IMG/VR virus record: IMGVR_UViG_3300022867_000001
Coordinates: 1 to 40,762 of that record
Reading direction: 5' to 3' (one strand)
Source of the DNA: a virus
Lineage: Duplodnaviria; Caudoviricetes
Length of the DNA: 40,762 nt
Positions within the stretch are counted from its first letter, which is position 1. Each line of letters opens with the position of its first letter. Position numbers and translations under genes: made by a program. Of the stretch, positions 27,652 through 32,051 are shown piece by piece. The notes beneath the pieces were generated by a model. It saw nothing but the letters and a program-made list of their open reading frames with translations, did no database searches and was not told the DNA's origin.

Positions 27652-27799
27652 GTATTCTCCTGTTGATTGATTATGCAACTGCGGAATGACCTACAATTTA
27701 GGTTCTATCCTTTGCTATTTGTCGTACAAGGTAAGAGAGAATAGTTGTTATTTTACTTAACTAATTTAAGATTTAACTATCCACTGAGTGCAAAGACAC

Positions 27800-27901: not shown

Positions 27902-28783
27902 TTAACTAGCTTTGTTAAAAGTGTTAAGAACATTTACTGCGTCTCGTAGATTATTAGGTATTAAATGTGAATACCTGCTAATCATTTTCCATGACTTATG
28001 ACCTAACATCTGACCAATAAAGTGAAGTTCTACTTTACCTGATTGAGCCATACGTGTTGCACAAGTGTGTCTTAAACAATGAATGACAAACTCTTTGTCG
28101 TCTTGAAGGTTCATTGCTTTTCTTAGTCTTCTCCAAGTATTCTCACAAGTCCAATATTTTAAATGTGAAAACACTAGGTCGTTTCTTCCTACCGCTTTTT
28201 TAAGTAACTTCTCAACGATTAACTTAGCACGTTCTGTTAAAGGTACACCTCTGGGCATATTGTTTTTAGTTACCTCTTTAGGTAAATTAACAACATAATG
28301 ACCATCTACATTGTGTATCATTAGCTTCTTAATAGATAACGCTTCGCCAAGCCTTAAACCGCTATCGATAAGAAAAAGATAGAACTCTAAATAATCAACC
28401 ATATTCCACTCGGTCAATAATTTAATTATTTCTTTTTCTTCGATTGGCTCAAGGTATCTTTCTCGTCCATTGTTACTTTCGTCCTGCCATTGAATATGAG
28501 GCATTCTATCTAAATGATAAATAGACTGTCTCTGATTGGCATAACGTAACATCTTAGAGATTGAGGACATATAACGATTAATAGTTGCAGGAGCAAAACC
28601 TCTGTCCTCCAACGTATCCACAAGATTTTCTATGTGGCTATCGTTAACTTCAGTTACAAGCATTCCCTTACCAAGCATATCAATTATTTTCTCGGCTCGT
28701 TTAGATTGCAACTTTTCCCAACCTTTAAGTGTTAACTTGCGGTGTATCTCCGTCAACAACTTGACATTTTTTGTCTGTTGCAT
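27902..28783 (-). CDS. int: Tyrosine integrase
   Basis: SGLRLGE (R), TKN (K), HCLRH (HxxR), LGHKS (H), RYSH (Y). Confidence 0.95.
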   Translation of the reverse strand: MQQTKNVKLLTEIHRKLTLKGWEKLQSKRAEKIIDMLGKGMLVTEVNDSHIENLVDTLEDRGFAPATINRYMSSISKMLRYANQRQSIYHLDRMPHIQWQDESNNGRERYLEPIEEKEIIKLLTEWNMVDYLEFYLFLIDSGLRLGEALSIKKLMIHNVDGHYVVNLPKEVTKNNMPRGVPLTERAKLIVEKLLKKAVGRNDLVFSHLKYWTCENTWRRLRKAMNLQDDKEFVIHCLRHTCATRMAQSGKVELHFIGQMLGHKSWKMISRYSHLIPNNLRDAVNVLNTFNKAS

Positions 28784-28804: not shown

Positions 28805-29152
28805 TTATTTGACCCATTCAAGAAGAGTATTGTGTACCCTTCTTCCCTTTGCTGTAAGACGCACAAGTTTTCTACGTCTTTCCATTGGGTCTTCAAAGTT
28901 CTCTAATAGACCTATCCCAACTTTTCGGTGTCTGTTGATAGTTGCTAACTTATAGCAATTTCTTGAAACACTTGATTGAGCTATGTCTAAAACCTCCGAT
29001 ATAGCTTGTTGAGCCACACCGTCTTTACCGCCTTTATCCGCTACATAGAAAAAAACAGATATAGCTTGAGCCTCTAACTGTGGGTCAAACTTTCTCATTT
29101 CTTCTATAATCTTCAAAAGATTATTACTCATTTTCTTTCTTCTTTCTTTCAT
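28805..29152 (-). CDS. MarR-like winged-helix protein (regulator or excision factor); start may be 29131
   Basis: QQAISEVLDIAQSSVSRN HTH; EDPMERRRKLVRLTAKG wing motif. Confidence 0.85.
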   Translation of the reverse strand: MKERRKKMSNNLLKIIEEMRKFDPQLEAQAISVFFYVADKGGKDGVAQQAISEVLDIAQSSVSRNCYKLATINRHRKVGIGLLENFEDPMERRRKLVRLTAKGRRVHNTLLEWVK

Positions 29153-29444: not shown

Positions 29445-29478
29445 ATGCTATCCTGTCGCACATAATATGTGCAATAGG
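29445..29478 (-). promoter_or_regulatory. Putative host sigma70 promoter overlapped by an operator-like palindrome
   Basis: TTGCAC-N18-TAGCAT; CCTGTCGCACATA-A-TATGTGCAATAGG inverted repeat at 29452-29478. Confidence 0.5.
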
Positions 29479-29498: not shown

Positions 29499-29559
29499 GC
29501 AAAATACACCGTCTAGTCTTTAGACGGCATTTCGGCTATTGAAGCCTCGTCAGTTTTGC
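29499..29559 (-). ncRNA. Hammerhead ribozyme, type I
   Basis: GCAAAA CUGACGA GGCU-UCAAU-AGCC GAAA UGCCGUCUA-AAGAC-UAGACGGUG UA^UUUUGC; full core and all three stems; predicted cut between 29505 and 29504. Confidence 0.9.
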
Positions 29560-30149: not shown

Positions 30150-30205
30150 TTGACTTATATAAAAAGTCTCAAAGCCTACTCTGTGTGAATAGGCTTTAAG
30201 TCTGT
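30150..30205 (-). repeat. Intergenic repeat A, copy 1 (double hairpin)
   Basis: ACAGACTTAAAGCCTATTCACACAGAGTAGGCTTTGAGACTTTTTATATAAGTCAA. Confidence 0.9.
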
Positions 30206-30643: not shown

Positions 30644-30807
30644 TAACTAAGCCAACCTTCAGCAATAGCATTATGAAACATTTTTAGCTTTTGCTCTTGT
30701 GGTGCGTTTTGGTAGTCCTCAAAGTGTTTCTTCTTCTCGGTCTCGTCTCGATACTTAAAGGCACTCTCTGCCCTTTGTATCTTTTGAACACATCTTGCAA
30801 TCTGCAT
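30643..30807 (-). CDS. Small hypothetical protein (54 aa)
   Basis: AGGAG SD; MQIARCVQKIQRAESAFKYRDETEKKKHFEDYQNAPQEQKLKMFHNAIAEGWLS. Confidence 0.7.
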   Translation of the reverse strand: MQIARCVQKIQRAESAFKYRDETEKKKHFEDYQNAPQEQKLKMFHNAIAEGWLS

Positions 30808-30839: not shown

Positions 30840-30897
30840 TTGACTTTTAAAAAAAAAGTCTCAAAGCCTACCCTGTGCAAATAGGCTTTAAGTCTGT
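30840..30897 (-). repeat. Intergenic repeat A, copy 2
   Basis: Near-identical to 30150-30205. Confidence 0.9.
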
Positions 30898-30904
30898 TTT
30901 TAAT

Positions 30905-31465
30905 TTACCAACTTTTATTGAAGATATGAACTTTGTAATTGTCCGCCTTGCACTCCATATAATCAAATGACAAATCACGCTCAAAGCTGTCATAGTCAAA
31001 ATATCTTGCAAGTGTAGAATTGCTGTCATTGTCTAAGCCTTCAACGGTGTCGTTTGCGTAATCTTGGGCAAACTCTTTGAAGCTGTCATAAGTACCGTGA
31101 AAAGCGTCTTCAAAATGTTCAAGGTCTTCAACTGACCAATGTTCAATGAAGCCTTCAACCGCTTTTACTCCGTGCAATTTAATTGCCTCCACAACTTCAA
31201 TTACTTTTTCTAAATCTGGATATTCTCCCAAATTTGGAAAATTGTCATAGTCATGTATTGCGTATTCCTCTGCGTCTGGACTTGGTGACGATTTAAGAAC
31301 CTCCGCAATTTGTGCTTCTAGTTCGTCTTTGTCTGTCTTTGGCTCAATCCAAGAACCATACAGAACGCCTGAATTGTAAGACGATAAACAAGCTATGTAT
31401 ATTTTAGATTTTTCTATTTCGTCAACTTTGCTTAACTCATTTGTTTTAATTGTATTAGTTTGCAT
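30905..31465 (-). CDS. ardA: Antirestriction protein ArdA (DNA mimic)
   Basis: IYIACLSSYNSGVLYGSW, EEYAIHDYD, LARYFDYDSFERDL; highly acidic. Confidence 0.9.
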   Translation of the reverse strand: MQTNTIKTNELSKVDEIEKSKIYIACLSSYNSGVLYGSWIEPKTDKDELEAQIAEVLKSSPSPDAEEYAIHDYDNFPNLGEYPDLEKVIEVVEAIKLHGVKAVEGFIEHWSVEDLEHFEDAFHGTYDSFKEFAQDYANDTVEGLDNDSNSTLARYFDYDSFERDLSFDYMECKADNYKVHIFNKSW

Positions 31466-31501: not shown

Positions 31502-31556
31502 TTGACTTTATAAAAAGTCTCAAAGCCTACCCTGTGTGAATAGGCTTCAAGTCTGT
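31502..31556 (-). repeat. Intergenic repeat A, copy 3
   Basis: Near-identical to the other two copies. Confidence 0.9.
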
Positions 31557-31569
31557 TTATAATTAATAT

Positions 31570-31788
31570 TTATGAGTTCTTAACTATGTACATTTTACGA
31601 ACTCTTACGGCTCGGTTTCTATCGTCAAATACAACAGGCTCAATTTTATTTTTAATCATGTTGTTATATTGGTTCTGGTGTTTTTCTAATTCGTGCAAAG
31701 CCTGTGTGTAGTTTAGTTTCTCATCTTCAAAGAAATAAAAAGACTTACTCAGGTTTTGCGTATCAACTTTAATTGAATAGGTGTCCAT
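31570..31788 (-). CDS. Hypothetical protein (72 aa), first gene of the early operon
   Basis: GGAG SD directly after the ribozyme. Confidence 0.7.
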   Translation of the reverse strand: MDTYSIKVDTQNLSKSFYFFEDEKLNYTQALHELEKHQNQYNNMIKNKIEPVVFDDRNRAVRVRKMYIVKNS

Positions 31789-31799
31789 GTGTGTCTCCG

Positions 31800-31857
31800 T
31801 TGTTTGTTTCAGCGTTGCTCCGCCTCGTCAGTGACGTATTAAACGCCATACAAACAA
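31800..31857 (-). ncRNA. Hammerhead ribozyme, type III
   Basis: UUGUUUG UA^UGGCGU-UUAAU-ACGUCA CUGACGA GGCG-GAGCAA-CGCU GAAA CAAACAA; predicted cut between 31849 and 31848. Confidence 0.9.
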
Positions 31858-32022
31858 GCTGTCCGTAACATCACGCTAGTGACCGCTTACAGCTTCGGAG
31901 GACTTTCCACACACCTTAAAGACTTACTCGCCCAGATAAACCAACTCGCAATGGTTGTGCCTGTGTGTGGCTCATGTTTTTTGTATGTAGATAAAAAACA
32001 GTAAAAATAAATAACTATTCTC

Positions 32023-32051
32023 TCTGTAAACTAAGCATATGTGGATTGCAA
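32023..32051 (-). promoter_or_regulatory. Putative host sigma70 early promoter
   Basis: TTGCAA-N17-TACAGA with upstream A-tracts (UP-element-like). Confidence 0.5.

Follow-up and report, generated by a model that had tools for sequence, protein, structure and literature searches.

A type III hammerhead ribozyme predicted before an early gene of an HTVC019P-like pelagiphage, and its likely role in cutting the early transcript

The early region of a T7-like phage carries, just upstream of the SD sequence of a short early gene, a type III hammerhead ribozyme (HH1) that is predicted to cleave itself. The DNA analysed, hereafter the window, is the whole 40,762-nt IMG/VR record IMGVR_UViG_3300022867_000001; HH1 lies on its minus strand, as do all the main genes. 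It is probable that HH1 self-cleaves constitutively during early transcription, thereby taking the part in transcript processing that belongs to RNase III in T7. Because relatives swap the ribozyme freely for other ribozymes or for long hairpins, HH1 is likely to be a transcript cutter, not a dedicated translation switch, and whatever gain in translation results from cleavage is likely to be incidental to processing and not to account for the presence of HH1.

The RNA polymerase of the window is 76% identical to those of the Pelagibacter phages HTVC022P and HTVC019P, and the window combines a T7-like RNA polymerase, a MarR-type regulator, an integrase and a tRNA-Cys (its sole Rfam match at gathering score), as is characteristic of HTVC019P-type pelagiphages (Pelagivirus). 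Its gene order also agrees with the layout of this type in the available text of the group's description (10.1101/410191). Judged by these genes, the window is an HTVC019P-like SAR11 pelagiphage; DNA near-identical to it is contained in salt-lake metagenome runs. The features needed below are the following.

32348-32187: 53-aa ORF, further upstream than the gene next to the leader
32023..32051 (minus): candidate host-polymerase early promoter, TTGCAA, 17 nt, TACAGA; recognized by eye, conserved in HTVC019P, uncalled by the scan
31898..31973 (minus): conserved structured leader, a three-way junction with GAG/CUC and CCACACAC/GUGUGUGG helices; no Rfam match
31856..31895 (minus): second leader hairpin, AAGCUGU/ACAGCUU, abutting stem III of HH1; variable among relatives
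31800..31857 (minus): HH1, type III hammerhead ribozyme; cleavage predicted at 31849/31848
31786..31799 (minus): SD sequence GGAG (31798-31795), starting 1 nt (C) past stem III, 6-nt spacer ACACAC and ATG at 31788
31570..31788 (minus): 72-aa ORF, the gene that comes first after the leader; without a match in Pfam or PHROG, 10 database matches including the window's own protein
31508..31562 (minus): long irregular hairpin, copy before ardA (repeat 31551-31519); 23 bp, z -6.3
30905..31465 (minus): ardA antirestriction gene (PF07275, E 1.3e-30)
30860..30892 (minus): long hairpin, copy 2, ahead of the 54-aa gene
30807: 54-aa gene, downstream of the second hairpin copy
30168..30200 (minus): third copy of the long hairpin
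29499..29559 (minus): HH2, type I hammerhead at the end of the block of early genes; cleavage predicted at 29505/29504, with no SD sequence after it
29445..29474 (minus): palindrome between HH2 and marR that overlaps a promoter-like site; recognized by eye, the palindrome being kept in relatives
28805..29152 (minus): MarR-type regulator
27902..28783 (minus): tyrosine integrase

Two repeated motifs were observed in this part of the window. One, of about 25 nt, is located at the candidate early promoter (32024, minus strand) and again, in opposite orientation, at 27735 (plus strand), where it adjoins a tRNA-Cys-like attachment core between the integrase and the RNA polymerase; it is possibly an integrase arm or repressor site. 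The other, ACTAGACGG, occurs three times on the minus strand of the early region (30470, 30085 and 29517), one copy being inside stem III of HH2, and is also found after a type II ribozyme in relatives (L004).

An initial annotation of this DNA had placed a type III hammerhead before an early gene, and this was confirmed by an intact core, a descriptor scan and covarying stems. The 5′ strand of stem III (UUGUUUGU, 31857-31850) is paired with 31807-31800, the 3′ side CAAACAA occupying 31806-31800; A17 (31849) is within a GUA triplet; stem I is UGGCGU/ACGUCA (31848-31843 / 31837-31832) with the loop UUAAU; the core segments CUGACGA and GAAA are at 31831-31825 and 31810-31807; and stem II is GGCG/CGCU with the loop GAGCAA, closed by G10.1-U11.1. 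Stems I, II and III have 6, 4 and 8 pairs, I and II being closed by loops and III open, as expected for type III, and the core elements CUGACGA, GAAA and UA are all intact. The descriptor scan of both strands of the window returned two matches, HH1 and the type I ribozyme at 29559-29499, while the strict descriptor gave no hits in 40 order-3 Markov resamplings of the window. Against the Rfam model RF00008 (Hammerhead_3), HH1 scores 20.7 bits (E 0.83), which is under the gathering threshold of 48.5; with the E limit relaxed to 5, weak hammerhead matches were obtained to both HH1 and HH2, plus one chance match.

Of 45 distinct pelagiphage-like short type III sequences, 35 were aligned to evaluate covariation. 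Pairing was found in 98.4% of the cells of this alignment (24-50% in sliding controls), with compensatory change at 9 of 16 pairs and in all three stems, and the hammerhead core was invariant except at N7 and H17. The first U of loop I and the last A of loop II were invariant as well (35/35), which fits the U-A tertiary contact between loops I and II typical of fast natural hammerheads. The HH1 haplotype, with its G10.1-U11.1 pair, was present in several independent contigs and is therefore no sequencing slip. Folded in isolation, the HH1 sequence has its energy minimum in an alternative, rod-like structure. Four sequencing runs were also examined (two metatranscriptomes of one study, one run possibly of RNA and one of DNA); the contigs from the two metatranscriptomes derive from relatives and do not extend over HH1. 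As far as sequence can tell, HH1 is a genuine type III hammerhead, for which self-cleavage is predicted.

The surroundings of HH1 had been described as CAAACAA followed directly by CGGAG and by the ATG at 31788; CGGAG does adjoin stem III, but six bases separate it from the ATG. The suggestion that stem III takes the place of a CAA-rich leader was correct: in each of four other early genes, the 32 nt ahead of the ATG contain 3-5 copies of CAA, and here that leader is the 3′ strand of stem III. The downstream gene is the first early gene only in the sense of being the first after the leader, the 53-aa ORF being located further upstream.

Stem II had also been read as closed by G-U and not by the usual G-C pair, and indeed the pair is G-C in 34 of the 35 aligned type III sequences and G-U in one. 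The G10.1-C11.1 pair is highly conserved in hammerheads (PMC4209133; the pair is also treated in PMC11300833, both as far as the accessible text goes), but it is not obligatory: in the main text of Perreault et al. (2011; PMC3088659) a G-U still counts as a pair under the filter used there, and a U10.1-U11.1 mismatch occurs in active natural hammerheads. The wobble pair may slow the cleavage of HH1; a literature search on G10.1-U11.1 found no paper. With a relaxed scan, two type III haplotypes with a non-G-C pair at 10.1-11.1 were found, both having the SD sequence 1 nt past stem III (n=2), and non-G-C closing pairs were also present in four type I ribozymes of the terminal slot. Hammerheads with the U10.1-U11.1 mismatch were seen in first and terminal slots (L023, L026, L103; L021, L041, L035). 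The G-U pair was considered as a sign of translation tuning, an idea that was rejected because the terminal slot, though devoid of an SD sequence, has non-G-C pairs too.

The processing role is suggested mainly by the comparison with related phages. The family scan covered 125 fetched loci and the early region of the window, and gave 205 hits, 121 of them distinct (70 type III, 47 type I including one chance hit, and 4 type II); the search patterns required ACAA in stem III or the leader motif, and therefore these frequencies are biased toward window-like sequences. Close relatives share one order, which runs from the structured leader through a type III ribozyme and the short genes to a terminal type I ribozyme, a palindrome and marR, and their short early genes are split by ribozymes or by the repeated long hairpin. 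The occupant of a given slot varies. Among ten named relatives, the first slot is a type III hammerhead in four (HTVC019P, MedDCM-OCT-S35-C6, HTVC021P and HTVC121P) and a long irregular hairpin in six (HTVC201P, 304P, 131P, 022P, 105P and Eistla; the hairpin of HTVC131P has 26 bp, z -4.7). Homologues of the gene at 30807 stand in 40 distinct upstream contexts, namely 12 type III, 7 type I and 1 type II ribozymes, 12 long hairpins and 8 that fall outside the rule, and ardA is preceded by a long hairpin in the window and by ribozymes in relatives. From this sequence record, the early genes are shuffled between shared intergenic modules.

The predicted products of these elements have much in common. 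The 3′ products of type III ribozymes begin with stem I, and those of internal type I ribozymes are predicted to start with a hairpin in 26 of 28 cases. In the terminal slot, an SD sequence and ATG within 75 nt follow in none of 19 rows (one row is the chance hit); HH2, which has the canonical G-C closing pair, is conserved in many relatives and has the palindrome and promoter-like site after it, before marR. Considering the shared slots, the hairpin-capped products and the terminal slot devoid of SD sequences, the common function is most simply the making of RNA ends. An unrelated viral contig (L058, L063, L064) was also observed to carry a trio of near-identical type III hammerheads, and two of the three end at an SD sequence.

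The long hairpins of the window carry a U-tract, occupy slots that are used by ribozymes, and were scored as terminator-like by the scan. RNase III sites are irregular duplexes of about two helical turns, and the long hairpins have this shape, the repeated one with 19-24 bp in all 35 distinct copies (23 bp before ardA in the window) and that in the first slot of HTVC131P with 26 bp. They are putative RNase III sites, but may instead be terminators or a further self-cleaving class.

From the sequence, the covariation and the sharing of slots, we infer the activity and timing of HH1, the stability of its product and the cutting of the long hairpins by RNase III, along the following lines. Cleavage of HH1 would remove a structured leader of about 170 nt, and the first early mRNA would then begin at a 5′-OH, with the hairpin of stem I at its end and, downstream of it, the CAA-rich strand, the SD sequence and the gene. 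Ends of this type, with a 5′-OH and capped by a hairpin, resist 5′-dependent decay. The trimmed end would likely make the message more stable and shield its ribosome-binding site from structures further upstream, as in RiboJ, for which the available text of PMC7536230 echoes a similar end protection. HH1, the three long hairpins (acting as RNase III sites, or possibly as terminators) and HH2 would between them split the early transcript into messages of gene size, with HH2 ending the last of these and severing the early transcript from the marR-integrase block. The CAA leader being unusually short in this haplotype, cleavage is therefore predicted to give a modest gain in translation as a by-product, which in our folding models is perhaps about 2-3-fold.

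The leader that HH1 would remove (31973-31898, minus strand) directly follows the candidate early promoter. In an alignment of 18 of 27 distinct leader contexts it was 94.2% paired, with compensatory change at 8 of 23 pairs and in three helices; it could be an antiterminator, a small RNA or some other motif. A comparison by eye with consensus features of the twister, pistol, hatchet, twister-sister and HDV-like ribozymes gave no convincing fit, nor is there an Rfam match, and these candidates were discarded. Two ORFs annotated as hypothetical, L001:743-934 in HTVC019P and L010:514-741 in HTVC121P, coincide in part with the structured leader or the ribozyme and are possibly mis-annotated.

The alternative that survives best is that translation is gated by cleavage, i.e. 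that the precursor buries the ribosome-binding site through stem III and through pairing of the SD sequence and spacer with the leader at 31914-31896, so that a ribozyme slowed by its G-U pair would delay or condition the first early gene. We consider this unlikely, even if several results speak for it. In unconstrained folds the SD sequence of the window is buried by leader pairing, its unpaired probability rising from at most 0.02 in the precursor to 0.50-0.98 in the 3′ product, and the cost of opening positions -20 to +13 falls from 12.8 kcal/mol before cleavage to 3.0 kcal/mol after it (a gain of about 10), the largest drop among 62 haplotypes. The lowest-energy, SD-buried fold of the full-length precursor lies 9 kcal/mol below the covariation-supported one, and therefore refolding to the SD-buried form is possible. 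Stem III itself (duplex energy -7.9 kcal/mol at 37 C and -12.9 kcal/mol at 10 C) spans -19 to -12 relative to the ATG, positions that fall inside the usual footprint of the 30S subunit.

The picture changes when the leader is held in its covariation-supported fold. Opening of the SD sequence then costs 0.6 kcal/mol in the precursor versus 0.5 kcal/mol after cleavage, and opening of -20 to +13 costs 5.5 versus 3.0 kcal/mol (a gain of 2.5); with the factor of 0.45 mol/kcal for translation given in the available text of PMC7536230, the latter change corresponds to about 3-fold. Predicted folding of the nascent RNA points the same way: the main leader helix P1 forms before the SD sequence is transcribed, and with this fold the SD sequence is open. 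Moreover, the leader strand CUC, which pairs with the SD sequence when folding is unconstrained, covaries instead with GAG further upstream (13 GAG/CUC and 5 CUG/CAG among 18 leaders), and the five leaders with CAG instead of CUC are therefore unable to pair with GGAG. A dedicated anti-SD element in the leader, as suggested by the unconstrained folds, was thus rejected as a conserved device, none being found on the 5′ cleavage product across the 18 leader contexts. Over the 62 haplotypes the median costs change little on cleavage, from 2.5 to 1.8 for the SD sequence and from 6.8 to 5.1 for the footprint, and no sign of a ligand or regulator was seen.

The distance between stem III and the SD sequence also bears on this question. 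After collapsing loci identical to the window over the ribozyme to one haplotype, 48 close type III haplotypes were compared (of the 70 distinct ones, five close and three other haplotypes lacking a called start were dropped, and five distant and nine other ones were counted apart). The window, at 1 nt, is the extreme, the other 47 having gaps of 6-18 nt (the gap of HTVC019P is 16 nt), and these 48 haplotypes stand before 25 different N-terminal hexapeptides. Gating would be favoured by this shortest of gaps and by its occurrence in both type III haplotypes with a non-G-C closing pair, but in the second of these short-gap haplotypes (L023) cleavage is no aid, the footprint costing 4.9 before and 6.5 after it. 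The initial annotation had proposed that cleavage unmasks the initiation region and so couples self-cleavage to translation. The fall in footprint cost in the native leader fold, the short gap and the largest drop of 62 haplotypes agree with it in part, but the SD sequence is outside stem III and predicted to be equally open before and after cleavage, 47 of 48 relatives have the longer gap, the anti-SD CUC covaries elsewhere, and hairpins replace the ribozyme in 6 of 10 relatives. The proposed mechanism is probably at most a local side effect.

In more distant loci the SD sequence does lie inside stem III (L050:2496-2556, L077:1364-1426 and L048:2496-2555; the terminase of L050 is 82% identical to that of the window), and therefore such a design exists in nature, which lends gating some further plausibility. 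In L047 and L094, stem III of a type III ribozyme was observed to overlap the start codon. By their sequences, these five hammerheads would be better candidates than HH1 for a natural cleavage-gated switch. In 185,579 prokaryote genomes, a pattern search for a hammerhead plus SD sequence gave 10 loci. One may also imagine a combination, in which plug-in cassettes of ribozyme, leader and ribosome-binding site replace the T7-type RNase III sites of pelagiphages and the lineage of the window has made one of them into a cleavage-gated switch (1-nt leader, slowed by G-U, ribosome-binding site trapped by the leader), with L050, L077 and L048 as its complete form; this we regard as speculative and rather doubtful.

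It is improbable that the main effect of cleavage is on the 5′ product, the leader being freed as a small RNA with a defined 3′ end (2′,3′-cyclic phosphate) and the downstream gene being incidental. Such a role would account for the strong conservation of the leader, with the pairing and compensatory changes given above, and for a processing-type element after the leader in nearly all mapped loci, but it leaves unexplained the ribozymes of internal and terminal slots, which lack a leader of this kind, and the leader matches no Rfam family. Least probable of all is that HH1 is degenerate or neutral, an intergenic repeat carried as a recombination module and weakened by a C-to-U change: the G-U pair is rare (1/35), early genes are shuffled among shared intergenic modules and phages without a first-slot ribozyme exist, but every core position is intact, natural hammerheads with a U10.1-U11.1 mismatch are active according to the main text of PMC3088659, and compensatory changes in three stems indicate selection on the fold.

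Processing by HH1, the reading we prefer, has precedents. Clustered prophage hammerheads were described in Agrobacterium tumefaciens, Azorhizobium caulinodans and Clostridium scindens by Perreault et al. (2011), in whose main text (PMC3088659) three hammerheads of Agrobacterium flank ardA near marR and integrase genes and cleave in vitro and in E. coli, and processing into gene-length mRNAs is proposed. As in those clusters, hammerheads of different types here flank single genes or short blocks; unlike them, the present ones belong to phages with a SAR11 host, comprise dozens of haplotypes and alternate with RNase III-like hairpins in orthologous slots. The same main text has no occurrence of 'RNase III' or 'translation', and a term search of its supplements, whose gapped alignments can hide motifs and whose marine metagenome entries may include such sequences, returned no pelagiphage-type hammerheads. 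It also reports a hammerhead (HHphage) in the haloviruses HF1 and HF2, located 13 nt before the start codon with which the first ORF in a polycistronic early transcript begins, with a mapped 5′ end near the cleavage site. HHphage is a core variant that needs high Mg2+, whereas HH1 has a canonical core changed only at 10.1-11.1 and ends 11 nt before the ATG.

Like T7, with its RNase III sites such as R0.3, the window has processing elements between early genes, the first of them before the antirestriction region; unlike the T7 sites, HH1 is predicted to be RNA-catalysed and host-independent, and would leave a 5′-OH and not a 5′-phosphate. The early-region RNase III sites of T7 are needed for optimal translation of some mRNAs (PMC4858673), and the 5′-OH chemistry of ribozyme-made ends has been reviewed (PMC6765202), both according to the accessible parts of these sources. 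RiboJ, a hammerhead insulator that normalizes 5′ UTRs and raises stability (PMC7536230, available text), removes an upstream leader from before a ribosome-binding site, as HH1 would. RiboJ is engineered and adds a separate hairpin, whereas HH1 is natural and its CAA leader is itself a strand of stem III. Engineered aptazymes that sequester the SD sequence pair it inside a ribozyme stem, so that cleavage frees the ribosome-binding site; unlike in these, the SD sequence of the window is not paired inside the ribozyme stem.

Clustered phage hammerheads beside ardA, marR and integrase have been known since 2011, while the pelagiphage hammerhead family and the swap of ribozymes for hairpins were not found in the literature searched. 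That search, of titles and the starts of abstracts with few subscription journals, gave no report of pelagiphage hammerheads, and the available text of the paper on the HTVC019P group (10.1101/410191) does not contain the word 'ribozyme'. In a 2019 review the roles of bacterial ribozymes are, in its accessible part, largely elusive, and polycistron processing is listed as a mere suggestion (PMC6765202).

Pelagiphages appear to offer a natural experiment, as members of one genus, available in culture, fill one and the same slot, ahead of the same genes, with either a hammerhead or an RNase III-like hairpin; because the exchange occurs in cultured phages, the processing hypothesis is directly testable. 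The claim of a translation switch would be better examined in the relatives in which the SD sequence is inside stem III. Taken as a whole, the findings suggest that abundant viruses of the ocean routinely cut their own mRNA with ribozymes.
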